The translations under genes and the position numbers were made by a program. 64,000 nt of DNA. Source: Candidatus Saccharimonadota bacterium. Lineage in GTDB: Bacteria; Patescibacteriota; Saccharimonadia; Saccharimonadales; DTSZ01. The notes beneath the pieces were generated by a model. The model was not told the origin of the DNA and did no database searches. It saw only the letters and a list, made by a program, of their open reading frames with translations. Positions 3,693-60,342 of the stretch are shown piece by piece; the stretch's first letter is position 1, and every line of letters starts with the position of its first letter. Location of the stretch: positions 748,024-812,023 of the forward strand of contig DTSZ01000001.1 of assembly GCA_012965045.1 (NCBI GenBank), written 5' to 3'.

Positions 3693-3701
3693 GGACCTAT
3701 C

Positions 3702-4595: not shown

Positions 4596-4597
4596 AC

Positions 4598-5035: not shown

Positions 5036-5049
5036 ACAGATTAGTAGCC

Positions 5050-5078
5050 TTGATATATTTCAAATAAATGGTTAAACT
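5050..5078 (+). promoter_or_regulatory. sigma70-type promoter internal to the pilin array, serving member 7
   Basis: TTGATA (5050-5055), 17-nt spacer, TAAACT (5073-5078); lies in the only sizeable intergenic gap of the array. Confidence 0.5.
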
Positions 5079-5112
5079 AAAATCAAAATAATCACGTTAA
5101 GGAGAATAAACA

Positions 5113-5535
5113 GTGATCAGTTCAGTAAAAAATCTAGGCTATAAAGCAGCAGGAGCATTTACAGCGACTATTGGTGGCGTACTTGCAAATGGTTCTAAGG
5201 TGTTCGCTCAACAGGCTACCCCAGACCCATGTGACATTACTTCAGGCGGAATTCAAGGTGGCGCGGACTGTGCTGCTCCAGAAGGCGCTCGTGGTGACCT
5301 ATTTGGTGACGGCGGTATCTTTAGCACTGTTTCAAACACACTTCTATTCTTAGTTGGTGCTATATCAGTCATTATGTTAATCATCGGCGGTATTCGCTAT
5401 GTTGTTTCAGCAGGTGACCAAAACGCTGTAACTGGCGCAAAGAACACTATTCTTTACGCTATCGTCGGTATTATTGTCGCTTTCCTAGCTTTCGCAGCAG
5501 TTAACTTTGTTACAAACCAGCTCGAAACTAACTAG
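5113..5535 (+). CDS. TrbC/VirB2-like pilin (array member 7; own promoter and terminator, candidate major pilin)
   Basis: 140-aa ORF; GTG start after AAGGAG; Cys pair CDITSGGIQGGADC; C-terminal VSNTLLFLVGAISVIMLIIGGIRYVVSAGDQNAVTGAKNTILYAIVGIIVAFLAFAAVNFVTN, near-identical in protein to member 6 but with many synonymous DNA differences. Confidence 0.7.
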   Translation: MISSVKNLGYKAAGAFTATIGGVLANGSKVFAQQATPDPCDITSGGIQGGADCAAPEGARGDLFGDGGIFSTVSNTLLFLVGAISVIMLIIGGIRYVVSAGDQNAVTGAKNTILYAIVGIIVAFLAFAAVNFVTNQLETN

Positions 5536-7228: not shown

Positions 7229-7321
7229 GGAGAGATACCCAAGAGGCTGAAGGGGACGGTTTGCTAAATCGTTAGGGGGAAGAAATTCCCCGCGGGAGTT
7301 CGAATCTCCCTCTCTCCGCCA
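7229..7321 (+). tRNA. tRNA-Ser (anticodon GCT)
   Basis: GGAGAGA acceptor pairs with TCTCTCC; anticodon loop ttGCTaa; long variable arm gggggaagaaattccccg; GAGTTCGAATCTC T-arm; encoded CCA. Confidence 0.95.
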
Positions 7322-17400: not shown

Positions 17401-18890
17401 GTGACAGCACATGGCAAGCTCGTGATTTAACTGCTCAAGGTATTGCCGACAATGCTGTTGTAGAGGTGATAGCAGCGAATGGGGACACTAATACAGAAAA
17501 TGAATTTGGTTCAAGGACAAATGGTTCGGCGCTAAACCGTATTATAGATTTGGTAGAAGCAGAATCCGGTGGCTCTGAGCTGTGGCGCAATCATGTTCCC
17601 ACCGATACAAGTGGAGGCATTCAGCTGTATCATGAGGATGTGAGTGACACGCCCGTTACTTTTCATATGACAGGTGTTTGGACACCAAATATTGAGCCTG
17701 ACGACCCGGTTAATCTCGATCAACAAGAAACAGATACTACATCGATTCCACTTGGCAATTGGCTAGACACCACAACCGTAAAGTTTGAAGGTGATATTAG
17801 CGATGTGCACGATTATGAGGTATTAGAACTATGTATTGAGGCGCAATTACTCGGGGTTGACTTTACGGATGTCGAAACCGCCTGCTCCAGTGAATTTGCC
17901 TACAATGGCACGACTGTTACCGTCGATTTTAATATCGGCTTAGCCAGTGGCGACAACGAATATCATTGGCAAGCTGCAACCCGTGATTTGTATGGGGCGT
18001 ATTCTAACTGGGTGAGCTTTGGCGCCAATGCTGAAAACGAACGCGATGTTGGCATCGACACTACTCCCCCAGTGCCCGGTATTGTGTATGACGGAACTGC
18101 AACAAGTATTGACGCCGACTTTAATGACGGAGCGCTGGATAGTTTAAGCGCCAATTGGGCTGGCTATAACGCAGGCGGTTCTGGGTTGGATCGCTATGAA
18201 TTATCAATCGGTACATCACAAGGTGCAACAGACGTATTAACCTGGACAGATGTTGCTGCCGTAGAATCGTATACGGCCAATTCATTATCGCTACGAACCA
18301 CTCAAACCTACTACGTCAATGTGCGGGCCTTTGATATTTTTGAGCGCAGTGGGCAAGCCAGCTCCGACGGCATGTATGTAGCGCCAACGCTTAGTTTTGC
18401 GGTGAGCCCAACTAACGTAACCTTCGACAGCTTAAATCCAAGCAATAGCTTTACCGACACCGAAACAGTTAGCCTCACTACCTCGACTAACGCCTATAAT
18501 GGTTACAATATTCGTGCCTATACATTGGGCGTGTTGAACGCGGTTAGCAATCCCGACACTATTGGCTTCTTTAACGGCGGAACCTATGCTGCCCCCGACG
18601 GATGGTTGGCGAGTGATCGAGGCTGGGGCTATCATTCAGATGACTCGCTGGTTGATGGTGTGAACCGGTTTAATTCATCAACCTGTCTGGGTGGTAATCC
18701 GCAGCCATGTTTTGCCCCATTCAGCACCACAGCTCCGGGCGATATTATTGCTGACAACACCGGTCCGATAACAGCTACCCCAATTACCAACGAAATATTC
18801 ACCATTACCCAGCGGGTGGGCGTTGATCAGTTCCAAGTTGCAGACGAATATCAAGGCACAGTTATCTACACTGTGACCCCGAGGTATTAA
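11403..18890 (+). CDS. giant (2495 aa) N-terminally anchored surface protein/adhesin with several repeat families and a C-terminal WxL-like domain
   Basis: Single uninterrupted ORF with AGGAGA SD. N-terminal basic stretch plus TM (IVGAIALIVAVNAILGY); three internal triple-repeat families; an FN3-like module (DTTPPVPGIVYDG...YYVNVRAFD); a C-terminal domain homologous to the products of 19892 and 21162. Confidence 0.85.
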   Translation: MSKPKTKKHNHPVRHFLTAKLHVQQFAEPLSVRERIVGAIALIVAVNAILGYSGVATTQNVGDTRAVPAGSCGHDIGWDSSTKAGGLPSLDSTSGEADFTFENSAVLDPTTNGALTCGSFDFPPDSQLDPAIAVSFAVTQIPEVDEAVDEVEEEAEVQATDDTLQPPVEDPIEQNSNFTYDLSLLSQEVAETAVHVEPSDELPADSLAQLEISGDNGENWQAVYAFTSTQQSNFTNSNYVYISLPPSYLENTEKLQARVVGLSRADASTTLLVDSLFMTYEIGQQTNLSVVQIGENGDPLTIDEQLVSTSDSIVFEFTTQAQDDTLVDGVGSQLNGLFGQDDIQPSNVEIKTQIINSSGETIEDVETNISYKQKDTVGRDVWEVEVTAPAQFTPGEHTAHVSVSDTDGATQSIEQDFLWGVLAINTDKSAYTIGDNALLQLAVLNDNGEPVCDAEVTVGVYLNDTQTDSLSTKDNRLTVADSCSLYEDHIEADYSGKTQFSLPGTYELRVQATTRTGSYSIVEVIEVSDTQDYSVQRTGPTRIYPPLTYPMIIEVTTADGFSGTVVERVPRSFEIETIDFAENYKLVYTDDRYSYIEWDVTIAAGESKKLGYSFDAPDIAPEFFLAGPLEFKSTSDGQQPQLLHTEQRQWQIASDALADIAIYREATGADVIGTTVTNIDWDTTTTQGAPYSLQANTIDIDLADAGHYFVTYTLPTQTSSGSNRSEIQSWLRLNDSTDLAYGRGQGYIRRSGGADEGYNHGAAIIDVSAGDDIRLQAQRTDDNSATVERRANKSGINLVKLDDDWDYLRSRPTSDQTIGSTTSFETVTLATDDEIDSASFSRSGGTITIAEAGHYLVTFNIGVTHTDGGIRINDEARLTLDGTEIDGTRVSTYVRGTNSTNDGMLTWTGIIETTAANQDLVMEIRRESEVNPATHNTKAAESGIAIARLPDDGDYIRLGETGGGQDLSTSRTSITWDETLEEDTDSFDHDATNTERINIEANGDYLFFHSLYSARPEGNANREAQFFEWQANGLSLYEWGSSGQFNRGDQGAYDARTAGSSTGFVANSLTDTDYIELTQINETANATSTYQADRMGVQAVQLQSLIAPGTPIMSQTHFRWRDDTTDLNSSGGYLAAEDSNAISSIEKNTNYRLRIAAANTGTGVDTVARSYELQFGRITSSEATCSAITTWTGLNDSATDAFEIAETPYISPDGEATNPALLANSEAYTYVFGEGRESADTTGTIGPLNAATYTELEYSIEATDEAIPASQYCFRLFDANNTQALTSYVTFPTVTVASVAVPAGLGEAGTFTSAVDGGWTTVNFIDSYTTPVVVGNSNSHNGQAALVFEARNVTSTSADMRVCESEGSSSNGCDTHAAETVGYLVIDAAETGNYSGIEAGTFSVNGDFTTTTSSPTYVDTYSTAPYVFANVNTVNDTEVPIEVVVTTTSTTGFTAGICDHSQTNSDACDNHGSNETVGWVAIDPSNSPFDVTSDIGLVSIGNSTWTNVSFTSGFDDVPSVIVESQTDTGAQNVEINEARSVSVAGADVRFCEIDTLDSCDTHSADDVAWVAIEQDTFHNVALNQDTYRWYANANSTTPGAALSSENTAASGVADGGIVRLRMAVQAGTDIAVNDIDFTLQYGAGEDCSLIGSWTDVGGLGSGSIWRGYNNGSPADETTLPTSLLNGGGNQLQTYEEENDSATNPTAIATGQRGEWDWVLENNGATESTNYCFRMVGSGGDPIQYSRYAELITEAIPSSFYVERANQWTTGSTSTWQDINLSNAPYNVPANSAVEITIMNADASDSSTAGVRQNGSSLSRFTNLHEAEGGGFFGSQGNAVITMHVQTDATGVIEYYTDNPGETTFMLDGYWESGSYVEGWSNFTAGASNTWQDVDLSGFPYDVPVNRVIEIVGQNGEDGAENQIGVRRNNSSLSRIVDVQEAENPADSFTTVTFFTQADQNSLIEVFAEDNSNVNFYYAGYWDIPPGYYNELATTITNPTSDSTWQARDLTAQGIADNAVVEVIAANGDTNTENEFGSRTNGSALNRIIDLVEAESGGSELWRNHVPTDTSGGIQLYHEDVSDTPVTFHMTGVWTPNIEPDDPVNLDQQETDTTSIPLGNWLDTTTVKFEGDISDVHDYEVLELCIEAQLLGVDFTDVETACSSEFAYNGTTVTVDFNIGLASGDNEYHWQAATRDLYGAYSNWVSFGANAENERDVGIDTTPPVPGIVYDGTATSIDADFNDGALDSLSANWAGYNAGGSGLDRYELSIGTSQGATDVLTWTDVAAVESYTANSLSLRTTQTYYVNVRAFDIFERSGQASSDGMYVAPTLSFAVSPTNVTFDSLNPSNSFTDTETVSLTTSTNAYNGYNIRAYTLGVLNAVSNPDTIGFFNGGTYAAPDGWLASDRGWGYHSDDSLVDGVNRFNSSTCLGGNPQPCFAPFSTTAPGDIIADNTGPITATPITNEIFTITQRVGVDQFQVADEYQGTVIYTVTPRY
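13375..14715 (+). repeat. three tandem ~147-aa protein repeats inside the giant ORF (borders approximate)
   Basis: Units carry AGHYFVTYTL / AGHYLVTFNI / NGDYLFFHSL and end LVKLDDDWDYLR / IARLPDDGDYIRL / GVQAVQLQSL. Confidence 0.5.
15340..16125 (+). repeat. three tandem H-type-lectin-like repeats inside the giant ORF
   Basis: GWTTVNFIDSYTTPVVVG...RNVTSTSADMRVCE...CDTHAAETVGYLVIDA; PTYVDTYSTAPYVFANVNT...TTGFTAGICD...CDNHGSNETVGWVAID; TWTNVSFTSGFDDVPSVIVESQ...VAGADVRFCE...CDTHSADDVAWVAIE. Confidence 0.4.
16690..17700 (+). repeat. three tandem ~115-aa repeats of unknown type inside the giant ORF
   Basis: TWQDINLSNAPYNVPANSAVEITIMNAD..VRQNGSSLSRFTNLHEAEGGG; TWQDVDLSGFPYDVPVNRVIEIVGQNGE..VRRNNSSLSRIVDVQEAENP; TWQARDLTAQGIADNAVVEVIAANGD..SRTNGSALNRIIDLVEAESGG. 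Confidence 0.55.
18385..18887 (+). other. C-terminal ~165-aa WxL-like domain of the giant protein, shared with the two ~350-aa paralogs
   Basis: PTLSFAVSP..TNAYNGYNIRAY..GTYAAPDGW..WGYHSDD..FAPF..YQGTVIYTVTPRY* aligns with PTLSFDIQP..TNASSGYNVYLRY..GTYASPSAF..FGFHTDD..FAAF..YNSTLIYTAVATY*. Confidence 0.6.
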
Positions 18891-19891: not shown

Positions 19892-20941
19892 ATGAATCTG
19901 ACTGCTATACAAACTAAGCGGGCTGCATGGCGAGCTGCCATGACCGCAACTGTATTTGGCATGGTGCTGAGTACTGTTGCCCCAGCACTTGCGGTACCAA
20001 CAGACGTATCGCTTGAGCTCGGCGATTCTCGGGTGGATGAAACAAGCACCTATGTACTTGATATGAGTACAGTAGACACTGGCACAAGCTTGCAGTGTAT
20101 CGAAATTGACCTTGGCGCAAATGCCGACGGTTCTGGTGCAGTGAGTGGCCTCGATACATCAAGTTCTACTTTTGATGCGTCTGACATTGTTACCTTTGGT
20201 AGCTGGTCAGTCGACAACACAGCTAGCGCAGCTCACCAACTACGTATTACGAACGGCACTGGCGAGAACCCAAGTGCTACAGGTTCTATAACTTGGGGTG
20301 GTGTAACTAACGGCGATACAGCAGAAACAACCTACTACGCAGTTATGACAACCTATACTGACACTGGCTGTTCAACTGCTAACGAAACAACTACTGTTGC
20401 TTTCGTTTACACCAACGGCCAAGCCGTATCAGTAACGGTTGACCCAACACTGAGTTTTGACATTCAACCAGTTGCGTCGTCTACAGCTGTAGCTGGCACA
20501 ACTACAACAGCTACAACTACTGATGGTACTGTACCGTTCGGGTCAGTAACCTCTTCATCAAACGGTGTGGCTGCTCATGACTTACAAGTGGCAACCAACG
20601 CGTCGTCTGGGTATAACGTCTACCTTAGATACACCCAAGCTCTAACTAATGGTAGCGGTGACACAATTGACGATCACACAGGAACCTATGCTTCTCCATC
20701 AGCCTTCCCGGCTGCTGGAACCGAAGCCTTTGGCTTCCACACTGACGACACCGACGTTGCCGGTTTTGGGGCAAGTAACTTTGCAGCCTTTAAAACCAGT
20801 AACGAAATCGTTATGAGCCGAACAACTGCAACACCAAGTGCAGAAACAAACACTGTTGCGTATCAAGTAGGTATTTCTAACACCACAGAAAGTGGTACCT
20901 ACAACTCAACACTTATCTACACAGCTGTAGCTACCTACTAG
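19892..20941 (+). CDS. secreted beta-rich protein with C-terminal WxL-like domain (candidate surface-fibre/complex subunit, paralog A)
   Basis: 349 aa; signal peptide ...STVAPALA|VPTDVSLELGDSRV; Thr/Ser/Gly-rich with no Cys-rich or TM region; the C-terminal half is homologous to the giant protein's C-terminus; ends IYTAVATY*. Confidence 0.6.
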   Translation: MNLTAIQTKRAAWRAAMTATVFGMVLSTVAPALAVPTDVSLELGDSRVDETSTYVLDMSTVDTGTSLQCIEIDLGANADGSGAVSGLDTSSSTFDASDIVTFGSWSVDNTASAAHQLRITNGTGENPSATGSITWGGVTNGDTAETTYYAVMTTYTDTGCSTANETTTVAFVYTNGQAVSVTVDPTLSFDIQPVASSTAVAGTTTTATTTDGTVPFGSVTSSSNGVAAHDLQVATNASSGYNVYLRYTQALTNGSGDTIDDHTGTYASPSAFPAAGTEAFGFHTDDTDVAGFGASNFAAFKTSNEIVMSRTTATPSAETNTVAYQVGISNTTESGTYNSTLIYTAVATY

Positions 20942-20964
20942 TTATAGGTTAGATACCAAGCAAA

Positions 20965-20994
20965 AGCACCCAAATAGAACTGGGTGCTTTTTTG
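20965..20994 (+). terminator. intrinsic terminator after subunit paralog A
   Basis: AGCACCCAaatagaacTGGGTGCTtttttt. Confidence 0.75.
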
Positions 20995-21161
20995 GTATTT
21001 GGGTGTTTGAAGTGTCCGTTATGTATAACCAAAGTGCTAACCACGGGTTTTAGTGTTAAAATGGTGTTAAATTTTAAACATAAGCCTGTCTTATGTATGA
21101 CATAGGTGTTTATGTTGAAAATTTGGATATAAAAAGAAAATGATTAGAGAGAGGGAGAAAA

Positions 21162-22217
21162 TTGCGTATGCAAAAAACCAACCAATTATCAATCAATGCG
21201 CTTAAGGCTGTTGCCTTAGCAACGAGTGTGGTGGGCTTGTTGTTCGGTGTGTTCACGCCTGTAGCGGCAGCTCCGAGTGATGTGTCGCTTGAGCTTGGCG
21301 ATTCTAGAGTCGGTGAAACAAGTACATACATTATCGACATGTCAACGATCGATACCGGTACTAATCTAGAATGTATCGAAATCGATATGGGAACAAGTAT
21401 CGACGGCACGGGTTCAATCAGTGGCCTTGATACCTCAAGTTCTACATTTGATGCAACTGACTTAGTTACCTTTGGTAGCTGGTCTGTCGGCAACACTGCC
21501 AGCGCCGACCACAAGCTTCGTATAACCAATGGTGTTGGTGAAGCTCCAAGCGCTTCTGGTTCTATTACCTGGGGCGGAGTTACAAACGGTGACACGGCTG
21601 AAACAGCCTACTACGCTGTTATGTCAACCTACACCGACGCAGCATGTTCGACTACTCACGAAACATTTACAGTGGCTTTCATTTACACTGATGGCCAAAT
21701 TGTTTCTGCAACAGTCGACCCAACGCTAACCTTCGACATTCAACCAGTTGCTAGCTCACAAGCAGTTGCTGGTACTACTACAACAGTTTCAACAACTGAT
21801 GGTTCAATACCATTTGGTTCAATTACTGCTGTAGCGAACGGCGTAGCAGCGCATGACCTGCAAATCACTACTAACGCGTCATCTGGATACAACGTCTACC
21901 TTCGCTACACTCAACAGCTTACGAGTGCGGCAAGTGACACGATTGACGACCACACAGGAACCTATGCTTCCCCAACATCCTTCCCGGCTGCTGGTACAGA
22001 AGCCTTTGGTTTCCACACTGATGACGGTGATATAGCTGGTTTTGGTGCAAGTAACTTTGCGGCTTTTAAAACTAGTAACGAAGTCGTAATGACAAACACT
22101 GTCGCTGCAACATCTGCAGAGACAAACCGAGTTGGCTACCAAATTGGTATAGCCACCACAACTGAGAGCGGTACGTATACGACCACTCTTATTTACACAG
22201 CAGTCCCGACGTACTAA
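21162..22217 (+). CDS. secreted beta-rich protein with C-terminal WxL-like domain (paralog B)
   Basis: 351 aa, collinear with paralog A along the whole length (e.g. PSDVSLELGDSRVGETSTYIIDMSTIDTGTNLECIEIDMG vs PTDVSLELGDSRVDETSTYVLDMSTVDTGTSLQCIEIDLG). GAGGGAG SD; start TTG 21162 or ATG 21168. Confidence 0.6.
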   Translation: MRMQKTNQLSINALKAVALATSVVGLLFGVFTPVAAAPSDVSLELGDSRVGETSTYIIDMSTIDTGTNLECIEIDMGTSIDGTGSISGLDTSSSTFDATDLVTFGSWSVGNTASADHKLRITNGVGEAPSASGSITWGGVTNGDTAETAYYAVMSTYTDAACSTTHETFTVAFIYTDGQIVSATVDPTLTFDIQPVASSQAVAGTTTTVSTTDGSIPFGSITAVANGVAAHDLQITTNASSGYNVYLRYTQQLTSAASDTIDDHTGTYASPTSFPAAGTEAFGFHTDDGDIAGFGASNFAAFKTSNEVVMTNTVAATSAETNRVGYQIGIATTTESGTYTTTLIYTAVPTY

Positions 22218-22317
22218 CGCTGACGTAACGGCGTAGTACGCCTGACAACAAAGGTGGGCAATTTGCAAACTTGCTTACGCTTAAGGTAAACTTAATATAA
22301 AATTAACAGAGGTAAAT

Positions 22318-23382
22318 TTGCTTATGGTAACTACACTTCGTCGCTCGCTAGCTTTGCTTGGGCTAATCGCGGCAGTAACGCTCGTAGCGTTATTCAATCT
22401 ATCATCAACAAGCGCACAAGACGCAGAACCAGGAAATGCGCTGAGTATTTCCCCGTTCAAATTCGAACTTGACGCCAATCCTGGCGATTCAATCGAACGC
22501 ACAATTCGTGTAACTAACAATGCTGATGTGCAACAAGATATTTCAATCTTGGTTAAAAACTTCACTGCTGACGGTGAAGAAGGACAGGTTAATCTAACAG
22601 AAGACGCTACTTCGTACTCTATTGCAGAGTGGGTAACCGTCAACAAGTCTGAAAGTACAATTCCTGGCCGTACGTCAGAAACATACACGTTTACAATTGA
22701 CGTTCCAGAAAACGCTGAACCAGGCGGACACTTTGGATCAGTCGTATTTGCAACTGACCCAGTAGAGGTTGAAGGTGATCAGAGTGGTGCCACAGTAAGT
22801 GGTGAAATCGCTGCCCTTCTGCTCGTACGAATCGATGGTGACATCGAAGAAGAAATTAGTGTTGCATCTTTCGAAGCTGGTGTCGTTACAACCGACGCTA
22901 ACGACGATGAAGTATTCGACGAAAAATCTTCTTTCGAAAATGGTCCTGTGACATTTGAAACTCGTTTTAAAAACGACGGTAATGTTCACTTAGCTCCAAC
23001 CGGTACGATCACCATTAAGAACATGTTCGGTAGCGTAGTTGAAACACTGCAGCTTGAAGAGCAAAACGTTCTACCCGACGCCGTACGACGTTCACTCGCT
23101 GAATGGGACCCAGGTTTCTCAGTTGGAACATACACAGCTGAACTTGAGGCAACCTATGGTGAAAACAGTACAGTTATTACCGCAGAAACCTCATTCACTA
23201 TCTTCCCATGGAAGGTACTTGTGCCAGTATTCTTAGCAGTTGTTGCTGTTATCGTGGTACTTGTCAAAGGACGAGGACGAATCGCAAGTGCATTCAAAGC
23301 TCTTGAAGGTAAAAATACTGCTGACGCCCCTAAAAAGCCTGCAGCAAATAAAGACGACACTAGCAGCAAAGACAATAGCTAG
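22318..23382 (+). CDS. DUF916/DUF3324-like surface protein with C-terminal TM anchor, copy 2
   Basis: 354 aa; signal peptide; LSISPFKFELDANPGDSIERTIRVTN; VPENAEPGGHFGSVVFA; IAALLLVRIDGDI; TM VLVPVFLAVVAVIVVLV plus a basic/Lys-rich tail. Paralog of 18890. Confidence 0.55.
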   Translation: MLMVTTLRRSLALLGLIAAVTLVALFNLSSTSAQDAEPGNALSISPFKFELDANPGDSIERTIRVTNNADVQQDISILVKNFTADGEEGQVNLTEDATSYSIAEWVTVNKSESTIPGRTSETYTFTIDVPENAEPGGHFGSVVFATDPVEVEGDQSGATVSGEIAALLLVRIDGDIEEEISVASFEAGVVTTDANDDEVFDEKSSFENGPVTFETRFKNDGNVHLAPTGTITIKNMFGSVVETLQLEEQNVLPDAVRRSLAEWDPGFSVGTYTAELEATYGENSTVITAETSFTIFPWKVLVPVFLAVVAVIVVLVKGRGRIASAFKALEGKNTADAPKKPAANKDDTSSKDNS

Positions 23383-28804: not shown

Positions 28805-28977
28805 GCACTAGTATCTCGTATCTGTTCCTGACTATCAAGCTAAGTAAACAGTTGGCGGAGAGTACAGAGGGCAGAGAGCTGATATCGAATACTATCTTTA
28901 GTTGAATTTTCGTGTGAAATGAAAAAACCAACAAAAGCCTCTATTTCAAGGAACCTCCGTTGGCTAAAACCGTTTTT

Positions 28978-29006
28978 GCCACCCAAAAGGGTGGGGTTTT
29001 TGTTTT
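28978..29006 (+). terminator. orphan plus-strand terminator-like hairpin in the valS-tsaD intergenic region
   Basis: gCCACCCaaaaGGGTGGggtttttgtttt; no annotated plus-strand gene ends here. Confidence 0.35.
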
Positions 29007-29076
29007 CATACTTATTGTATACCCGCCGTATTATTTTGCAAAGGGCTTATGGTTGAAAACTATATAAACAGGGCGT

Positions 29077-29268
29077 ATGTTTTTACATATGAGTAACCCA
29101 AACACCGTATCTAATCCTGATTCACTACGTAGTTATCAGCAGGACTATTTAAATCTAGTAAACAACATAGGTTCTCTGAGTACAATTCACTCACAAGAGC
29201 CGGCGCCCGGTACGCATTTTGTACCAGTTAAAGTTATTGAAAAAATACCTAATGGTCTAAGACCATAA
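29077..29268 (+). CDS. hypothetical small protein (doubtful)
   Basis: 63-aa ORF with no recognisable motif. A possible TTGCAA...TATATA promoter lies upstream; the ORF is convergent with tsaD. Confidence 0.3.
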   Translation: MFLHMSNPNTVSNPDSLRSYQQDYLNLVNNIGSLSTIHSQEPAPGTHFVPVKVIEKIPNGLRP

Positions 29269-29297
29269 ACGCGCACAACGGCCCAAGGTAGCAGTAG

Positions 29298-30365
29298 TTA
29301 CATCGACCAACTTGGCTTAATGTCTAAATCATATGGATTATCTGGATCGTTATGTTGAGCGTAGTAAAAACCGAGGGCCGCCATCATTGCTGCGTTATCT
29401 GTACAGAGGCTCATTGGGGCGTATTGAATGTCGTAGTTTGGAAGTTGATTTTTTAGCTCAGACCGCAACAATTTATTAGCTGCTACGCCGCCAGCAATTA
29501 CTACAGATCGTGGACGAAATTCTTCAGTGGCTTTTTTAGTATTTCTCACAAGCGTTTCAATTGCAGTAGCTTGAAAGCTCGCAGCTATGTCAGATACGTG
29601 CTGATCTGTTAATTGGTCAGCGATTTGAAATGAAGGAAAGGAGTAATCTTCGCCAATAAGTTGTTGGCTCTTGCGCAACACAGCGGTTTTTAGCCCTGAA
29701 AAAGAAAAGTTATACGGATTATCTAGCTTTGATATTGGAAAATCGAATGCTTTTGGATCTCCTTCTGTCGCACGGTTGCTAATACTCGGACCACCAGGGT
29801 AGGGAAGACCAATAATTTTTGCGACTTTATCGAAGGCTTCGCCAATTGCATCGTCTTGGGTTTGACCAAGTAGCTTATATTCGAGGTATGAATTAAACAA
29901 AACCAGTTGCGAGTGACCACCACTTACAATCAGTGCTAGCAACGGGAACTGCGGGGGAGCAGTAGGGAGGTTTAAAGACTCGAGGCCATTTTTACCTCTG
30001 GTAATCATGTTGGCAAATACATGTCCAAGTACGTGATGTAGCCCATAGATAGGCTTTTGTTTTGTAATGGCTAGCGTGCGAGCAGCCATGCTGCCAATAA
30101 GCAGGGAACCAGATAAGCCGGGGCCTTTTGTAAGGGCAATACCGTCAATGTCTGTCCATTGGCAATTGGCTTCTTGTAGTGCTTTTTCAATAACAGGAGC
30201 AATAACTTCTACATGTGAGCGAGCTGCTACCTCTGGTACTACGCCACCAAATTCTTTGTGAATATCAATTTGGCTAATAACTACATGAGACAGCAAAATA
30301 GAGCCGTCTTCTACAACTGCGGCTGCGGTTTCATCGCAACTGGATTCAATTCCCAATATTTTCAT
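29298..30365 (-). CDS. tsaD: tRNA N6-adenosine threonylcarbamoyltransferase TsaD
   Basis: 355 aa; MKILGIESSCDETAAAVV N-terminus, HVLGHVFA metal-binding His pair, Kae1/TsaD layout. TGaTATACT promoter 9 nt upstream of the ATG. Confidence 0.95.
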   Translation of the reverse strand: MKILGIESSCDETAAAVVEDGSILLSHVVISQIDIHKEFGGVVPEVAARSHVEVIAPVIEKALQEANCQWTDIDGIALTKGPGLSGSLLIGSMAARTLAITKQKPIYGLHHVLGHVFANMITRGKNGLESLNLPTAPPQFPLLALIVSGGHSQLVLFNSYLEYKLLGQTQDDAIGEAFDKVAKIIGLPYPGGPSISNRATEGDPKAFDFPISKLDNPYNFSFSGLKTAVLRKSQQLIGEDYSFPSFQIADQLTDQHVSDIAASFQATAIETLVRNTKKATEEFRPRSVVIAGGVAANKLLRSELKNQLPNYDIQYAPMSLCTDNAAMMAALGFYYAQHNDPDNPYDLDIKPSWSM

Positions 30366-30404
30366 ACGAAATGTAGTATATCACCTCTGTGAATTTGTTT
30401 AGGT

Positions 30405-30887
30405 GTAAGCTGTCGCTTACTAAAACTAATACTCCATTTGTACAGACAAACGGAACCCAAAACTGCTGGGCGATTCATTTAATTCTTTATGTGTTGTTAG
30501 TTATTAAAACGTTCTCAATAAGAGTACTTGATGTAAAAGCGCTCCCAGCACTTTTACTCAGGCACGCTTCTCTCGGTGAGGATCACACGTTTTGAATAAC
30601 AACATTCACATCAGGAACTAAATGTTTTATGCCCAGACCCAAGCGAGCGAAGCTCGCTAACCCACTCCGAAAGCTTCCTGATCAGCGAGCGTTAAAAATA
30701 CAATTTAAGCGAAGAACTCTGTATGAAGTAATCAAACAAAAATATAGTCAGACCGACTGAAAGGAGTTGTTCTGAGCATTGTATTTATTAACAAGCGAGA
30801 TGATAAAGAAGGTTGAGTGTGGTCGTGTTTTTGGCTTCCGTTTTTGATGAGACAAAAATGGAAGGATGCTGAGAAGCGTAGCTTGCC
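30405..30887 (+). ncRNA. unclassified large (~480 nt) structured RNA, copy 1
   Basis: Homologous to 34258-34733, including a 40-nt block with one mismatch (30433-30472 vs 34283-34322). Hairpins retain pairing through compensatory substitutions; crossing helices 30466-71/30631-36 and 30610-17/30675-82 form a pseudoknot. Only short, non-conserved ORFs overlap it. Confidence 0.6.
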
Positions 30888-30935
30888 TATTAAAAATCAT
30901 TAAAATATAAATTTTTACCATGTAAACTATTGGTA

Positions 30936-31925
30936 ATGCCCAAAAAACCCGCACATGATCATTTATTAAATACCGTTGCCTGGCGCACGTACCGCGCAAA
31001 CCATAATTGGCCTAACGAAGCTATTGAGTTGCCGTACTACCAAGATCAGGTCGTTTTTAGCCGATCTATGCCGTTGGTTGGGCCGATAAACGTAATTGCC
31101 GCTCAAGAACAAAAACTAAAAGTTAAAGATATCGATGACTTTACCGAACAACTAAAGTCAAACCTTAACGGAGCTGTCGCGAAGTGCTGGTTTACGCAAA
31201 AGTTTGACGAACGAATAGCCGCCAATTTAGTCAAAGAAGGTTGGGTGCCGTGTAAACACCCAGTTTCTACAGTGAGCGAGCTCAAAATAGACCTCGCACA
31301 AGGCGCTGAGGCGCTGCGTGCCAGTCTAGACAAGAAAACTCGTTACAAACTACGCAAGGCTGAAAAAGCGGGCATAGAAGTGAGCATGAGCAGTGGCGAT
31401 GCCACAGACATTGAAGAATTAGCTACGTTGGTAGAGATTACCAAAGACAGAAGCAGCAGTGGCGTGCGCAGTATGCAACAAATGCGGGAAGCGTGGGATT
31501 TGTTTAAACAGCATGATCAGCTGCGTATTTGGAAGGCCACCCATGATGGCAAGGTTTTAAACGCGATTGCAGTAGTTATGACTCAAGATACGGTTTGGAA
31601 CCGTGACAGCGGTAGCTTGCGGGGCTTTAATAAATTAAATGCACCACTGTATTTACGCTGGAAAATCGCCGAACACTATGCCAATGAAGGCAAGCGAAAA
31701 ACCTATAACTTGATGGGTGTTTCGCCTAAGTCGCACCGCGATGCGGGCAGACCACATACACTTGACGGTGTTACTAAATTCAAACAATCATTTAATCCTC
31801 ATATCAGTGACAGTTTAGGAGTATTCGAGCTTCCACTTGATGCTAAGTTATATAAACGATTTAAAACATTAGAGCCGTGGATTCTACGGTATTACTTTAG
31901 AATCAAAAAGGAATACTGGTATTAA
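30936..31925 (+). CDS. FemAB-family peptidoglycan bridge-forming aminoacyltransferase (FemX-like) 1
   Basis: ~329 aa; KTRYKLRKAEKAGIEV, YNLMGVSP..LDGVTKFKQSF pattern typical of FemA/B/X. ATG 30936 preferred over TTG 30930 (TAAACT -10 lies 7 nt upstream). Confidence 0.75.
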   Translation: MPKKPAHDHLLNTVAWRTYRANHNWPNEAIELPYYQDQVVFSRSMPLVGPINVIAAQEQKLKVKDIDDFTEQLKSNLNGAVAKCWFTQKFDERIAANLVKEGWVPCKHPVSTVSELKIDLAQGAEALRASLDKKTRYKLRKAEKAGIEVSMSSGDATDIEELATLVEITKDRSSSGVRSMQQMREAWDLFKQHDQLRIWKATHDGKVLNAIAVVMTQDTVWNRDSGSLRGFNKLNAPLYLRWKIAEHYANEGKRKTYNLMGVSPKSHRDAGRPHTLDGVTKFKQSFNPHISDSLGVFELPLDAKLYKRFKTLEPWILRYYFRIKKEYWY

Positions 31926-32902
31926 TGGCTAAACCAACGCAAAAAAATATTCTCAACAACTCGGGCTACATTCGCTTCAAGCAAGCTCATGGCTGGGAGT
32001 ACCAACAACTGGAACTAAACGAGCTACCAGCGGCCAATTTATGTGTTCGTACCATGCCGGGTGTGGGTAGAGTTGGCATGATTCAGGCGTACACCAACGA
32101 GCTTAATGCTAAAGAGCTGGGGCAATTCACTAAGCAGCTCAAACAGCTTAATCTTCAAGTTGTTAAGGTGTTTTTCGTTCAGCCATTCGACAAAAAAACC
32201 TTTAAACGTCTTGACGATTTGGGTTGGAAACCAGCTAATCATCCAAAAGTGCCTCGTTCTGTGATGATTTTAACTCTCGGTAAAGATTTTGAAGAAACTT
32301 CTACTCAGTTTACTAAGCAGGGGCGATACGAAGCTCGCAAAGGCGCTAAAGAGGAAGTAGTTGTTGAAGAGCTCGAAGTAAATCAGCCTAACTATCAGCG
32401 TCTACTGCCCTTAATTGAAGCCACCTACAAACGAGCAGGGATACATCGGTCAATGAAAGAAAAAACTCGTGGCTGGGACGAATACGCTAAAGATGGTTCA
32501 TTGCGTTTTTTTATAGCACACGCAGAAGGGGAAGACTTAGCCTGCGCAACACTCGTTCGTGATGCCGACACCGCCTGGTATTTAGATGGCGGCAGTGTGC
32601 CATATCGCAACCAGCTTTATGCAACACAAGTCTTGCAAAATGCTGTCATTAAAGCCGCTCAAGAGTCTGGCGTAAAATATTATGACTTTCTAGGCGTTAC
32701 ACCTAAGGTTGTCCGCGAAACAGGCAAGCAACACTCCATGGACGGTGTCACCAAGTTTAAGCAAAAGTTTTGTAGTGACTTTTACGATTATATTGGGGTC
32801 TACGAGTTACCAATTAAAACAAAAAATTACGCAGTATTTAAAAAACTAGAACGCTACTATGTTGCAATTTTTAAGCGGTTAACAGGGAAGTACTGGTATT
32901 GA
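31925..32902 (+). CDS. FemAB-family aminoacyltransferase (FemX-like) 2
   Basis: 325 aa, paralog of the preceding gene (GRYEARKGAKEEVVV, YDFLGVTP..MDGVTKFKQKF, both end YW Y*). ATG overlaps the previous stop (TAATG). Confidence 0.75.
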   Translation: MAKPTQKNILNNSGYIRFKQAHGWEYQQLELNELPAANLCVRTMPGVGRVGMIQAYTNELNAKELGQFTKQLKQLNLQVVKVFFVQPFDKKTFKRLDDLGWKPANHPKVPRSVMILTLGKDFEETSTQFTKQGRYEARKGAKEEVVVEELEVNQPNYQRLLPLIEATYKRAGIHRSMKEKTRGWDEYAKDGSLRFFIAHAEGEDLACATLVRDADTAWYLDGGSVPYRNQLYATQVLQNAVIKAAQESGVKYYDFLGVTPKVVRETGKQHSMDGVTKFKQKFCSDFYDYIGVYELPIKTKNYAVFKKLERYYVAIFKRLTGKYWY

Positions 32903-32932
32903 TACAATAGTTCATATCAGGAGGAAATAATC

Positions 32933-34240
32933 ATGGGTGTGTTCAAAACATACAGCAGTATAAAGTCAGCAGTTAAAAAATTCATTCCTGATTCGGTATT
33001 TAAGGCTTTGGTGAACCCGTTTCATTGGCTGGAAACCGTAGTAGCAATGGCTATTAATGGTTTTCCGCAACGGGGAATACGTTTTGTGGGAATCACAGGA
33101 ACAAATGGTAAAACCACTACAGCAATAATGATTACCAAAATCTTAGAAGAAGATGGTTATAGTGTTGGTTTAAATTCAACAGCGGTAATCGGCTTTAAGG
33201 GAATGTATCATGACAATACCTTTGCTCTAACCACTGCTAATCCGTTCCAGATTCATAAATTACTCAAGCAAATGCGCCGCGAAGGAGTTGATACTGTCGT
33301 TATGGAAGTGGCCTCACATGCTCTGGTTCAGCACCGAGTCTGGGGATTAAAATTCGAGACAGTTGTTTTTACTAATCTAAGTCGCGACCACTTGGACTAC
33401 CACAAAACAATGGAAAATTATGCCAGCGCAAAAGGGAAGCTATTTAGTAATTATCCAAAACTGTCAGTTATCAATAAAGACGATGAGTGGTTTAAGTTTT
33501 TTGATCAATACGACGCTGAGCAAAAGATTAGCTTTGGCACCGATAAAGCAGCCGACTGCAGAATTACAAAAGCCAAATTAAGCCAGAAGGGCAGCAAACT
33601 CACCTTTAAATTAGAAGACCGTGAAGCAGACATAAAACTGAACATTCCGGGTAAATATAATGCCTATAACGCTCTTGCAGCAGCAAGTGCAGCCTATGGA
33701 ATGGGAGTTGGCGTCGATACTATTCGGGCTGGTTTAGAAAAAATTGACGCCATACCTGGCCGGACGCAAATCATCGACGAAGGACAAGACTTTGTGGTGA
33801 TAATCGACCATGCTCACACCGAAGACGCCTTAGAAAACCTACTTACAACAGTGCGGTCAACACTAAAAGGACGTTTGATTTGTATAATCGGCGCCGACGG
33901 CGATCGCGATCCAACTAAACGTCAGCCATTGGGTAAAATTGCCGCCGAAAACAGCGAACTCGTCATTGTTACAGATCAAGAACCCTACACCGAAGATCCC
34001 GAAAAAGTTCGAAAGGCAGTCTTAAAAGGCGCAAAAACTGTTGAACTTGGTGTTGTAGTAAAAGAGATAGCCGATCGCAAGGAAGCTATAAAAGAGGCGT
34101 TGCGGTTTGCTAAAAAAGACGATGTTGTAGTTATTCCAGGGCTTGGAAATCAATTAACACGTGGTGTAGCCGACGGCAAAATGGACTGGGACGAGAGAGA
34201 GGTTACAACTGAGCTTTTGAAAGAGCTATTAGAGGAATAA
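32933..34240 (+). CDS. Mur ligase, MurE-like, with a short N-terminal domain
   Basis: 435 aa; P-loop GITGTNGKTTT; MEVASHALVQHRV..FTNLSRDHLDYHKTMENYASAKGKLF; IDHAHTEDALENLL; IGADGDRDPTKR. The position of the canonical DNPR motif reads TDQEPYTEDP. Confidence 0.8.
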   Translation: MGVFKTYSSIKSAVKKFIPDSVFKALVNPFHWLETVVAMAINGFPQRGIRFVGITGTNGKTTTAIMITKILEEDGYSVGLNSTAVIGFKGMYHDNTFALTTANPFQIHKLLKQMRREGVDTVVMEVASHALVQHRVWGLKFETVVFTNLSRDHLDYHKTMENYASAKGKLFSNYPKLSVINKDDEWFKFFDQYDAEQKISFGTDKAADCRITKAKLSQKGSKLTFKLEDREADIKLNIPGKYNAYNALAAASAAYGMGVGVDTIRAGLEKIDAIPGRTQIIDEGQDFVVIIDHAHTEDALENLLTTVRSTLKGRLICIIGADGDRDPTKRQPLGKIAAENSELVIVTDQEPYTEDPEKVRKAVLKGAKTVELGVVVKEIADRKEAIKEALRFAKKDDVVVIPGLGNQLTRGVADGKMDWDEREVTTELLKELLEE

Positions 34241-34257
34241 TTTAATAGAATTATTAA

Positions 34258-34733
34258 GCAAACTGTCGTTTGCGATTAATGTTCCATTTGTGCAGACAAA
34301 CGGAACCCAAAACTGCTGGGCGGAGTCACTTTTCTTTATTATTTGTTGCTAATTTAAATTGTTCTCATTCAGAGTGCATTCAATCAATAAGCCCCCAGCT
34401 TATTGAAGAAGCACACTTCACTCGGTGAGGTTCACACAATTTGAATCACAACATCTAATCAGGAAAACTGTCTTTTGTGCCCAGACCCAGCGAGCGAAAC
34501 TCGCACTGCAGCTAATCCACTCCGAAACCTTCCTGATGAAGAACGTATCAATAACAATTGTTCGAAGGGCGAGGACCACAAATGTGAGATTACGAACATT
34601 TTCTCGCAGCCAATTGTTATTTATACAAGAGAATCATAACGAAGAGTGAGTGTGGTGATCTTTTGGCTCCACCGTTTTGATCACTCAAAATGGTAGAAAT
34701 GGATGCAAGCGCCAGCTTGCTTAAACTATTTTT
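34258..34733 (+). ncRNA. unclassified large structured RNA, copy 2
   Basis: Same order of conserved blocks as copy 1; ends with hairpin GCAAGCgccaGCTTGC (34705-34720) followed by a T-rich run. Sits between the murE-like stop and a convergent gene, so it is not a 5' leader. Confidence 0.6.
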
Positions 34734-34738
34734 AAAAA

Positions 34739-35527
34739 CTATCTTAACGTCAGGGTTAAACACTTTATCCCACCACCGGATTTTTTGAATTCATTGATTT
34801 TTATAGCATGGGTATTAAAACCAGCGTTGCTAATGTCTTGAATAAGCTGTGGTGCGTCGGCGCTGATAACTACGTTGTTGCCGTCGCTAAACGTATTTAG
34901 GCCAAAGCCGATGGCGTCGGGCTCGCTGGCAATAATTACCGTACCTGCGAGTGCTTTAAGTTTTTCTTGTGCTTCTGGTGAAAAGGCGCCAGGGAAGTAG
35001 GCTAATGTGTCGTCGTTTAGCACAGTTAAACAAGTGTCGATGTGATAAAATCGTGGATCGACAAGTTCAAGTGAAATAACCTCTTGGTCTGTGAAAGTAT
35101 TCTGTAGCTCTTGATGAGACGCAAGGTCAGACCTAAACCCGTGCCCCGCTAAAATTTTGTTTCCAAAAAGTAGTGCGTCACCTTCGCCTTCAAAGTCAGC
35201 ATGCGGGATAGTTGTCTGCGAGTAGCCATTTTGAGTAAACCAATGCTTAAACAATTGAGTTTCAGGTTGGCGCTCAGGGAATTTAAATCGAGGTAACACC
35301 ACTTTGCCATCGATAACTAACGCTCCATTAGCGGTAAACACCATGTCCGGCAAGCCGCTTACTCCATCAATAAGTTGAATGTTATAGCCAAGAAAGTTAT
35401 AAATCTCAAAAAGCTCAATCCATTGTTGTTTGGCGCGCTGTGTATTAACGGGAGTGTCCGTTTTCATCCAGGCATTAATTTCGTAGCTAACTTCAAAATA
35501 ATCTGGTCGGCACATAAGTATATTCAT
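34739..35527 (-). CDS. amidinotransferase/DDAH-like guanidino-group-modifying enzyme family protein
   Basis: 262 aa; MNILMCRPDYFEVSYEINAWM N-terminus; catalytic-Cys C-terminus GGGIKCLTLTL typical of the arginine deiminase/DDAH/amidinotransferase superfamily. Confidence 0.65.
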   Translation of the reverse strand: MNILMCRPDYFEVSYEINAWMKTDTPVNTQRAKQQWIELFEIYNFLGYNIQLIDGVSGLPDMVFTANGALVIDGKVVLPRFKFPERQPETQLFKHWFTQNGYSQTTIPHADFEGEGDALLFGNKILAGHGFRSDLASHQELQNTFTDQEVISLELVDPRFYHIDTCLTVLNDDTLAYFPGAFSPEAQEKLKALAGTVIIASEPDAIGFGLNTFSDGNNVVISADAPQLIQDISNAGFNTHAIKINEFKKSGGGIKCLTLTLR

Positions 35528-35941: not shown

Positions 35942-36394
35942 ATGGAACAATTACCAGCACCCTCAAGTGAAGTTCAAAATATAATCGATAGCGATAATTT
36001 TACAGTCAACGAGATAGATGCGTTTGAAAGCGGCGCTCAAGCTTTATCAGAGTCGGCTACTCCAGAAGATCGTACTGAAGCCTTTCAGTTAGTAGTAGAT
36101 TCATCAGATGAGCCTGACTTAGCTCGCTTTCGGCGCTACCTTAATGCACGAAGACAAGATGATTCTGTAAGTGAACAGATGAATGCAGCCTATTTTGATG
36201 AAACATCCCCACCGCCCAACTCAAAACTACAAGATGCTGTCGAATATGGAGAAAGCACCGTGTCGCGGAAAATTGATGTCGTTAACAAGACAAAAGATGC
36301 TGTCAAAATTTTTGTTGATAACCGAGGTATCGTGCATTCGAATAAGGCAGAGGCTCTTACTACCGAGCGTACTTACGATAAACTAGCGCACTAA
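35942..36394 (+). CDS. hypothetical acidic protein
   Basis: 150-aa ORF with AAAGGA SD-like upstream; no recognisable motif. Confidence 0.5.
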   Translation: MEQLPAPSSEVQNIIDSDNFTVNEIDAFESGAQALSESATPEDRTEAFQLVVDSSDEPDLARFRRYLNARRQDDSVSEQMNAAYFDETSPPPNSKLQDAVEYGESTVSRKIDVVNKTKDAVKIFVDNRGIVHSNKAEALTTERTYDKLAH

Positions 36395-36520
36395 ACCAAA
36401 AATCGCCCAGTATTTAATTAAATACTAATATTGAATTATTTATAAAAATATGATATAAATACAACACCCTAGGTGAACCAAAGGACTTCTCTGGTTTGCT
36501 TCCCCTATCAAGGAAAGGGT

Positions 36521-37111
36521 GTGATTGAGTTGCGTAAGCACCTCACGTTCTTGTCCATCGACTACCCTGTAGCACTGGCTGGCTTGTTGGCCCTTGGACT
36601 GGCGTTCGTCATGCTCCTGGCCACACCAGCGCATGCGCAGCGTCCACCAAGCGAAGAGCCGCCTCCAGCGTCCTGCGCTGGCGTCGACCAGGACATCATC
36701 GAGATGCCGGTTGACGTTGCGGTTGCCAGCTTCTACGGCGGCAACGGTCTGGTCTCATCCGACTATCTCGTCGCCGATGCGCTGGCTCCGGCCGCACCTG
36801 TGCGTCGTGCTGTGGCGTCGACCTTCGCTGCCGACACGCCCGACCTACCAAGGTCCACCGTCGAGATGCTCGAGCACTACGCTTCGCTCTACCACGACCT
36901 TGGTATCGTTATCATCGGTGGCACCGCCGCCGTTGACGACCTGCAGGCCCAGCGTATCGCCGACCTGGCTGCTGACCTGGGAGCTCCCGATGTGCGCGTT
37001 ATGCGCATCGCCGGCGAGACTGGTCTCGACACCGCCGCAATGGTAGGCTGCGTAGTTGCAGCGAAGGCCCGGTACACGTTCGAGAACTCCACGTACTCCA
37101 GCCTGCGCTAG
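36521..37111 (+). CDS. secreted protein with a CWB2-type (cell-wall-binding repeat 2-like) domain, encoded on a GC-rich patch
   Basis: GTG 36521 after AGGAAAGG; signal peptide LAGLLALGLAFVMLLATPAHA. SSDYLVADALAPAAP...GIVIIGGTAAVDDLQAQRIADLAA..VRVMRIAGETGLDTAAMV matches the CWB2 pattern (ADALs..GG..avs..RiaG.dRy.Ta). 39/60 GC at 36661-36720 versus 20/60 at 35941-36000. Confidence 0.55.
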   Translation: MIELRKHLTFLSIDYPVALAGLLALGLAFVMLLATPAHAQRPPSEEPPPASCAGVDQDIIEMPVDVAVASFYGGNGLVSSDYLVADALAPAAPVRRAVASTFAADTPDLPRSTVEMLEHYASLYHDLGIVIIGGTAAVDDLQAQRIADLAADLGAPDVRVMRIAGETGLDTAAMVGCVVAAKARYTFENSTYSSLR

Positions 37112-44644: not shown

Positions 44645-44746
44645 ACATAGCAAACAGAGCTGGGTTGATAGTTGTTTACTTAATGGACAAAATGTCAATA
44701 ATATGCTAATGTTTACATTAGTTACAGAAAATATAAAAACAAAAAA

Positions 44747-60272: not shown

Positions 60273-60342
60273 GCTGAACCAGTTAATGGACAAGAAATCA
60301 AAAACATGCTAATGTTTATTTTAGTAACATAAAGAAACAAAA

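Follow-up and report, generated by a model that had tools for sequence, protein, structure and literature searches.

A partly dyad-symmetric structured element of ~490 nt in two diverged copies at the ends of a femX-femX-murE operon of Candidatus Saccharibacteria

Saccharibacteria and other bacteria of the Candidate Phyla Radiation (CPR) have very small, tightly packed genomes, and a 64,000-nt stretch of one Candidatus Saccharibacteria genome (GC 43%; hereafter the window, whose coordinates are used throughout) raises the question of what two related non-coding regions are doing at the two ends of a single femX-femX-murE peptidoglycan operon. A sequence-only reading of this DNA had described the regions as diverged copies of an unclassified, pseudoknotted RNA with compensatory base-pair changes, resembling the large 'ornate' bacterial RNAs. 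Here we find that the two copies are homologous, that base-pairing is kept between them and that both are insertions relative to related genomes, while a pseudoknot appears unsupported when the two sequences are compared. As a tentative reading, they may represent a lineage-specific foldback element, with an origin like that of miniature inverted-repeat transposable elements (MITEs), that selection has kept as a cis-acting RNA boundary module of the operon.

Two homologous copies and their predicted fold

Copy A (30400-30889) and copy B (34254-34724) aligned as collinear plus-strand homologues with ~80% column identity, and nhmmer recovered them from the window with E = 1e-155 and 1e-151, in agreement with the collinear homology first proposed. 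The 40-nt block expected to be nearly identical (30433-30472 versus 34283-34322) lies exactly at these positions with a single R difference and was matched in none of 100 shuffles, and the further near-identical blocks that had been named with it are visible in the alignment as well. No third copy was found by nhmmer in the window or in the 18 kb past its two ends, giving two copies per 82 kb examined. Frame-shifting indels are frequent between the copies, and the claim that neither carries a conserved open reading frame (ORF) holds: translated matches reached at most 22 aa in any frame, lay only over conserved nucleotide blocks and came with no Pfam match. A hidden small protein or pseudogene was rejected given that no frame is conserved and Pfam returned nothing, as were a 43-aa and a 54-aa ORF over the core, which have only ~10 residues in common and differ by non-synonymous changes.

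Folded independently, the two copies gave one closed multi-branch architecture at minimum free energy (MFE), with −155.9 kcal/mol (z −8.27) for copy A and −148.5 kcal/mol (z −7.32) for copy B, compared with z −1.87 for a 493-nt control spacer of the same genome. A closing stem, P1, joins the ends; within it lie hairpin P2, helix PX (CCAAAAC/GUUUUGG) and hairpin P6, and PX in turn encloses the long arm P3, the short central hairpin P4 and the long arm P5. The parts of the two copies, all on the plus strand, are as follows.

30400-30889, plus: copy A, whole element (alignment, nhmmer, MFE and helix table)
30400-30420, plus: copy A, 5' strand of P1, pairing with 30874-30889 or adopting a local alternative fold; it includes the palindrome GTAAGC-TGTC-GCTTAC (hairpin 1)
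30433-30472, plus: copy A, near-invariant core block with the P2 hairpin, the junction, the PX 5' strand CCAAAAC and the P3 base CUGGGCG
30466-30636, plus: copy A, long arm P3, from the base CUGGGC/GCCCAG to the tip hairpin at 30533-30557
30642-30658, plus: copy A, central hairpin P4, AGCGAGC-GAA-GCUCGCU, at the dyad centre
30660-30823, plus: copy A, long arm P5, with the base CCCACUC/GAGUGUGG
30827-30864, plus: copy A, PX 3' strand GUUUUUGG and hairpin P6 (CUUCCGUUUUUG...CAAAAAUGGAAG), a much less conserved mirror of P2 and PX
30874-30889, plus: copy A, 3' strand of P1 (helix table), holding the −35-like TTGCCT
34254-34724, plus: copy B, whole element (alignment, nhmmer, MFE and helix table)
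34283-34322, plus: copy B, near-invariant core block with P2, the junction, the PX 5' strand and the P3 base
34316-34484, plus: copy B, arm P3, with the tip hairpin at 34384-34406
34490-34504, plus: copy B, central hairpin P4 (helix table)
34515-34656, plus: copy B, arm P5 (helix table)
34661-34724, plus: copy B, PX 3' strand, P6 (34671-34694) and the P1 3' strand (34705-34724), which pairs with 34254-34273

Pairing is kept in arms whose sequence is saturated, and the junction core is almost invariant. When the MFE pairs of copy A were placed on copy B through a sequence-only alignment, 14 pairs had changed on both sides and were still paired, as judged in a pairwise comparison of two sequences from one species, which is not a phylogenetic test; column shuffles gave 5.6 +/- 2.2 such pairs, the tool's own shuffles 6.9 +/- 1.8 (0 of 500 reaching 14) and slid registers 1-5. 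Broken pairs numbered 32 on the same projection, versus ~57-60 expected. Sixteen helices registered by hand contain 73 unchanged pairs, ~16 double changes, no one-sided change and 4 mismatches; the hand count of double changes was 18, and two of these reflect a one-base register shift in P6.

The compensatory changes originally pointed out were recovered, with two double changes in hairpin 1 (30405-30420 versus 34258-34273) and three in hairpin 2 (30533-30539/30551-30557 versus 34385-34391/34399-34405). P1 pairs 30400-30418 with 30874-30889 in copy A and 34254-34273 with 34705-34724 in copy B, and its outer part changed from UAGG/CCUA to UUAA/UUAA by three double changes. The P3 arm covaries in its proximal part, its middle and its tip hairpin, and folded alone it reached z −6.4 in copy A and −6.3 in copy B. 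P2, which reads UCCAUUUGU-ACAG-ACAAACGGA in copy A, carries a conserved A.C mismatch, and distal P5 cannot be aligned between the copies yet forms a hairpin in each. With z-scores of −8.27 and −7.32, and 14 doubly changed pairs where 5.6-6.9 were expected, the description of the regions as diverged, non-coding, highly structured homologues with compensatory changes stands.

Identity between the copies is distributed over the fold as follows.

P2, junction, PX 5' strand and P3 base: 95-100%
P3 base 3' strand and J3/4: 91%
P5 base: 79-89%
P1 5' strand: 57%
P6: 53% (PX 3' strand and P6 region together, 53-60%)
Middle and distal P5: 35-40%, effectively random

Because identity in the termini and distal arms is near random, the copies are old, and saturation in the unconstrained parts alongside 90-100% identity in the core implies purifying selection. 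Selection that preserves a folded molecule leaves such a pattern, and the end of an active transposon would show the reverse. The mirror halves are also unequally conserved (P2 95% versus P6 53%), and therefore the element is not functionally symmetric.

Independent short-read assemblies (Logan, JGI) break inside both elements, one contig (L021) ending at window positions 30797 and 34457 and another (L022) at 34387, despite no exact stretch longer than 30 nt being common to the copies; coverage lost at hairpins, or more such copies in other parts of the genome, could account for the breaks. A 53-bp 'inversion' in an ENA scaffold (L013) was dismissed as a scaffold gap with a fold-back chimera and not biology: at its positions 5053-5115 (window ~30828-30940) a run of N is followed by the inverted P6 hairpin region fused to the start of femAB-1, which also truncated the called FemAB protein (P0001, 285 aa).

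Known RNA families, dyad symmetry and crossing pairings

Searching the whole window with Rfam 15 (4227 models) at gathering score returned only three tRNAs. With the cut-off relaxed to E 10, for 4.6 kb and for the two copies taken singly, all matches were unrelated, fell below threshold and differed between the copies. The failure to recognise RNase P, tmRNA, SRP, 6S, T-box or group I/II intron signatures by eye was thus reproduced by covariance models run on both copies. The models for OLE, GOLLD, ROOL, raiA and HEARO matched neither copy, and ARAGORN found no tmRNA at the element, which, judged by these models, seems to belong to no described RNA family. A T-box leader was considered because FemX enzymes use aminoacyl-tRNA, and was discarded on the lack of an RF00230 match at E up to 10 and on the position of copy B, which is not upstream of any gene on its strand. 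A hammerhead or k-turn built on the conserved CUGAUGA and CGAAA stretches was discarded by eye, order and spacing being a misfit.

Homologues were sought more widely. An 18-mer scan of 185,579 species genomes gave 12 chance matches, none extending to 20 nt; a degenerate 26-mer gave four matches in a metagenome collection, all in one unrelated coding sequence; and neither three pattern scans of viral contigs nor blastn against phage and plasmid records gave a match, although these searches need exact or near-exact blocks and could miss distant homologues. The suggested likeness to widespread ornate RNAs fails at this point, as no homologue outside this species appeared in the collections searched. 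What defines such classes is that numerous species show the conservation and the covariation (PMC5737381, PMC12286853), and multi-species homologues with supported covariation did not emerge for this element in the searches described. Like OLE, GOLLD, ROOL and raiA, it is several hundred nucleotides long and non-coding, it has multi-helix junctions in which conservation is concentrated, and its function is not deducible from sequence; unlike them, it is known from one species only, has no Rfam match and no supported pseudoknot, is dyad-symmetric and is an insertion relative to related genomes.

The symmetry extends over the full length. The left half aligned to the reverse complement of the right half with a score of 71.5 in copy A (43 +/- 8 shuffled) and 79.5 in copy B (38 +/- 8 shuffled), which is 3.6-5.4 standard deviations above shuffles. 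With nhmmer, the minus strand of the 5' half matched the 3' half, and a model of the P2 block matched the reverse complement of P6 with E 0.009. The ends are inverted repeats, with termini that pair over ~20 nt and a left ~100 nt that resembles the reverse complement of the right ~100 nt. Mirror partners are ATCAGGAA in the P3 3' strand with TTCCTGAT in the P5 5' strand, and TTCTTTAT with ATAAAGAA.

It is from two crossing complementarities, CTGGGC/GCCCAG and ATCAGGAA/TTCCTGAT, that a pseudoknot had been proposed. Both are present where they were reported. However, all 14 of their 14 pairs are invariant and thus give no evidence for a pseudoknot, and the strands ATCAGGAA and TTCCTGAT are used by nested helices in P3 (UUCUU/AGGAA) and P5 (CUUC/GAAG and AUCA/UGAU), beside which pairs covary in both folds (AUGUG/CACAU to AUUA/UAAU, and AUCA/UGAU to AUGA/UCAU). 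That these two strands are complementary over 8 nt follows from the element being partly dyad-symmetric. As an isolated duplex, the 8-bp crossing helix was predicted at −9.3 kcal/mol, versus −7.1 and −5.9 (copy A) or −4.2 and −6.0 kcal/mol (copy B) for the nested segments that it would displace. On this comparison the pseudoknot appears unsupported, and switching between the nested and crossing pairings is conceivable.

The strand on which the element would act was approached through wobble pairs and fold energies. A choice by G.U counts was abandoned because totals are equal on both strands; only conserved wobbles lean to the plus strand, on which the copies have four conserved G.U pairs in common, three of them in P3 and the fourth in P6, versus a single G.U on the minus strand, corresponding to the conserved A.C of P2. 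Fold z-scores are −8.3/−7.3 on the plus strand versus −6.9/−4.4 on the minus strand, and the compensatory statistics are the same on both. The plus strand is mildly favoured.

Both copies as insertions at the operon

The gene order is valS (−), tsaD (−), copy A, femAB-1 (+), femAB-2 (+), murE (+), copy B and a dimethylargininase-like gene (−), so that copy A lies between divergent tsaD and femAB-1 and copy B between convergent murE and the dimethylargininase-like (ddah-like) gene. Both copies have the orientation of the operon between them. The neighbours are these.

29298-30365, minus: tsaD, left neighbour of copy A
30936-34240, plus: bracketed operon, with femAB-1 (30936-31925), femAB-2 (31925-32902) and murE (32933-34240), assigned by Pfam and NCBIfam
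34739-35527, minus: dimethylargininase/arginine-deiminase-fold (ddah-like) gene, lying to the right of copy B, with 14 nt between its stop codon and the element

The TsaD protein sequence is exactly that of HIA92240.1/HIO87805.1, identical contigs occur in Lau Basin and Mariner vent metagenomes, and no strain variation was seen, the elements being 100% identical in all other contigs of the same species.

Five syntenic loci of relatives (L014/15, L016, L023, L028-30 and L031/32), with TsaD 65-72% identical, were compared. There the spacer from tsaD to murE, or to a single femAB gene, is 26-76 nt. The ddah-like gene of L014/L015 and L016, the two closest relatives, has a 4-nt overlap with the end of murE, and L028-30 and L031/32 have another gene there, at a distance of 5-17 nt from murE. 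Neither nhmmer with --max nor a covariance model found the element at any of the five loci. Given that valS, tsaD, femAB-1, murE and the ddah-like gene are orthologous in the relatives (47-73% identity), the locus is vertically inherited, and this lineage has gained femAB-2 and the two elements. Compared with the related genomes, each copy is an insertion. A shared palindrome, the 8-mer AAGCAAAC, considered as a target site in the relatives' tsaD spacers, is found in L016 and is not conserved among the relatives, and it was set down to chance.

Candidate promoter hexamers occur at the right end of each copy. In copy A the −35-like TTGCCT (30883-30888) in the P1 3' strand is followed exactly 17 nt later by the flanking, −10-like TATAAA (30906-30911), ahead of femAB-1; in copy B the corresponding TTGCTT is followed exactly 17 nt later by the flanking, −10-like TATCTT (34717-34745). 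An outward-facing candidate promoter would thus point to femAB-1 from copy A and antisense to the ddah-like gene from copy B, and the terminal hexamers might have the hybrid-promoter geometry of insertion sequence (IS) ends.

Several other features of the operon and its surroundings were noted. femAB-2 (31925-32902) is only 33% identical to femAB-1 and has no counterpart in the relatives' syntenic region, and index-based protein searches with femAB-1 and femAB-2 returned no homologue besides themselves. A sigma-70-like promoter lies just 5' of murE at 32879-32908 (TTAACA-18-TACAAT, with TG). The Shine-Dalgarno (SD) region of murE, AUCAGGAGGAA (32916-32926), is complementary over 9 bp (one G.U) to the conserved element sequence CUUCCUGAU, located at 30674-30682 and 34529-34537, and the element has two conserved 8-mers, the SD-like AUCAGGAA and the anti-SD-like UUCCUGAU. 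The 493-nt spacer between valS and tsaD (28805-29297; fold z −1.9, not unusually structured) contains on its plus strand a canonical terminator-like hairpin, CCACCCAAAAGGGTGG followed by a T-run (~28979-29005), and a 63-aa ORF (29077-29268) that one assembly calls as a gene; the spacer may represent a small plus-strand transcript. To the right, 35942-37111 holds two ORFs (150 and 212 aa) with no family match and absent from the relatives' syntenic region.

Farther away in the window, a tRNA-Ser(GCT) at 7229-7321 is called by ARAGORN and is not among the Rfam tRNA matches at gathering score (four tRNAs by ARAGORN versus three by Rfam). A 60-nt intergenic repeat at 44680-44739 and 60283-60342 (78% identity) contains the palindrome CTAATGT-TTA-CATTAG and is possibly a shared operator or promoter. 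The stretch also includes an ORF of 2495 aa (11403-18890), three tandem paralogues of ~350 aa (19892-23382), two of which are 69% identical in a 300-nt stretch of DNA, and a series of T4SS-pilin-family paralogues (2745-5535, and L026 1-9881) beside TraC/TraG/TrbL-like genes just upstream of the window.

Origin and possible roles of the element

Insertion status, long inverted-repeat ends and an unsettled strand point to a foldback repeat of mobile origin at least as much as to a classical RNA gene. Like MITEs, the element has inverted ends, no internal transposase ORF, an RNA stem-loop and a presence/absence pattern among relatives; as for copy number, the 82 kb examined contain two, at a single operon. 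The reading that we prefer, tentatively, is a lineage-specific foldback element of MITE-like origin, kept by selection as a cis RNA boundary module of the femX-femX-murE operon. What is observed is that the fold is conserved and that the copies are insertions; the further steps we infer. The partly dyad-symmetric element of ~490 nt would have arrived as a foldback (MITE-like) insertion and been retained later by selection, two paralogous copies having been inserted, one per end of the operon. It would act in cis as RNA, most likely from the plus strand and co-transcribed with or abutting the operon, as a structured 5'-leader and 3'-trailer module that sets the transcript ends. Processing at the ~20-bp P1 stem, protection from exonucleases and insulation of the operon from its divergent neighbour, tsaD, and its convergent one, the ddah-like gene, are candidate mechanisms, and the invariant 40-nt P2-junction block may serve as the docking site of a factor that reads the element.

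Precedents exist for parts of this scheme. Palindromic repeats that are co-transcribed, ERIC and Correia elements among them, alter how stable mRNAs are, and in bcr1 of the Bacillus cereus group compensatory changes are reported to preserve the RNA structure (PMC3184786). The element resembles ERIC, Correia/CREE and bcr1 in being non-coding and intergenic at gene ends, with terminal inverted repeats, a long, stable, cruciform-like RNA fold on either strand and presence or absence between related genomes. It differs from them in being 3-4 times larger (~490 versus ~100-160 nt), in the two copies seen at one operon, in having no recognisable target-site duplication, in a multi-branched fold in place of a single hairpin, in a core more conserved than the termini and in the inequality of its mirror halves.

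Another comparison concerns the closing stem. In rRNA-operon processing stems and 23S intervening sequences, the ends are joined in a stem that RNase III cleaves, releasing a structured RNA. The joining of the 5' and 3' ends in a ~20-bp stem could be taken as an analogy to the rRNA-operon stems, although this element is not in an rRNA gene.

A number of observations weigh against the boundary-module reading. At 490 bp the element exceeds the usual size of a MITE, and its termini are among its least conserved parts, where active terminal inverted repeats (TIRs) would show the opposite. No target-site duplication (TSD) is recognisable in the flanks (TTTGTT|...|TTAAAA for copy A and GAATTA|...|ACTATT for copy B), which at most have a trivial TA overlapping the terminal stem, and the genes around the copies include no transposase, integrase or reverse transcriptase and nothing else typical of mobile elements. 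On the RNA side, both strands fold to nearly equal energy with equally few G.U pairs, and scans found no clear promoter and no canonical terminator at either copy, in a genome that uses canonical terminators elsewhere. The covariation is pairwise, as stated above, the element is known here from DNA sequence alone, and there is no rationale for one kind of module serving as both leader and trailer.

A stand-alone, trans-acting large structured non-coding RNA, with two paralogous genes of a new class, a junction that binds a protein or ligand and a position that is incidental or due to a shared regulon, would account for conservation being higher in the core than in the periphery and for the ~16 compensatory changes, the core being explained as well as by the boundary-module reading. 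The very strong z-scores relative to the control spacer, the lack of an Rfam match, the ~1 kb of non-coding DNA kept in a compact genome where relatives have spacers of 26-76 nt, and the contrast between P2 (95%) and its mirror P6 (53%), which fits a strand-specific RNA motif, would agree with it too. We nevertheless regard it as somewhat unlikely: no homologue was found in the other genomes or metagenomes searched, the five nearest relatives are without the element at the locus, scans recognised no promoter or terminator, dyad symmetry with near-equal folding of the strands is unusual in RNA genes, and paralogues bracketing one operon in its own orientation are left without a reason. We also consider rather unlikely a hitherto undescribed type of large structured RNA (~490 nt), restricted to a Saccharibacteria lineage of which few genomes have been sampled, in which the invariant 40-nt hairpin-plus-junction block and a conserved five-helix core would bind a protein, tRNA or metabolite and couple expression or processing of the aminoacyl-tRNA-dependent FemX/MurE operon to a cellular signal, with one copy per transcript end. 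If the element were instead a decayed, non-autonomous MITE or foldback repeat with no present function, its pairing would reflect palindrome-templated mutation or repair, or different master copies. Long inverted-repeat ends with symmetry over the full length, presence or absence relative to related genomes, a similar fold of either strand with a small number of G.U pairs, an intergenic position next to the ends of genes and outward −35-like hexamers in the termini are as expected of such a repeat, and they match the MITE features listed in PMC3184786. By contrast, termini less conserved than the core and unequal mirror halves are not, and only two copies are seen in 82 kb, both at one operon, with no clear TSD and no transposase nearby. 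Compensatory changes fall in local hairpins inside one half (hairpin 1, P3 and the P3 tip), and therefore co-evolution of TIRs is no explanation for them. Moreover, a core 90-100% identical amid saturated parts implies selection, and we hold present functionlessness to be decidedly unlikely.

Selection could also act on the DNA itself, with palindromes that bind dimeric proteins or fold in single-stranded DNA and take part in recombination, replication or nucleoid organisation around the operon. Pairing is strand-neutral, with no one-sided (wobble) change in the hand-registered helices, symmetric palindromic sites are present (GYAARC-N4-GYTTRC at both ends, and TCCATTTGT-N4-ACAAACGGA) and the copies are direct repeats around a gene block, all of which would suit such an element. 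However, recombination between the copies would delete murE, and neither a recombinase nor another candidate partner gene lies nearby. The terminal palindromes covary internally, and therefore their sequence is not what is recognised; protein operators do not explain arms of 150-170 nt with conserved pairing, and several G.U pairs are conserved on the plus strand. A DNA-level role is thus improbable. A degenerate group I-like intron or ribozyme, finally, is suggested only by element size and by crossing topology, in which CUGGGC/GCCCAG and the AUCAGGAA/UUCCUGAD-type pairing, with a hairpin between them, mimic P3-P8-P7. Against it, the isolated copies matched neither Intron_gpI (RF00028) nor another ribozyme model at E up to 10, the counterpart of J8/7 has 16 nt and takes part in pairing (CCCACUC/GAGUGUGG), the element lies between genes and is closed by a ~20-bp stem formed from its two ends, covariation adjacent to the crossing strands backs the nested alternative, and the candidate P1 has only Watson-Crick pairs and no U.G. 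We consider this possibility very remote.

Taken together, the element is real, and it is unusual in a CPR genome. At sites where relatives leave 26-76 nt or overlapping genes, this genome keeps ~1 kb of non-coding DNA whose core and pairing are conserved, which argues for function; its practical value is limited at present because it has been found in one species only. If it does function at the RNA level, it would be among the very few large structured non-coding elements known from the phylum, placed at a peptidoglycan cross-bridge operon. If it is a domesticated foldback repeat, it would mean that mobile palindromic elements shape operon boundaries in an ultra-small genome.

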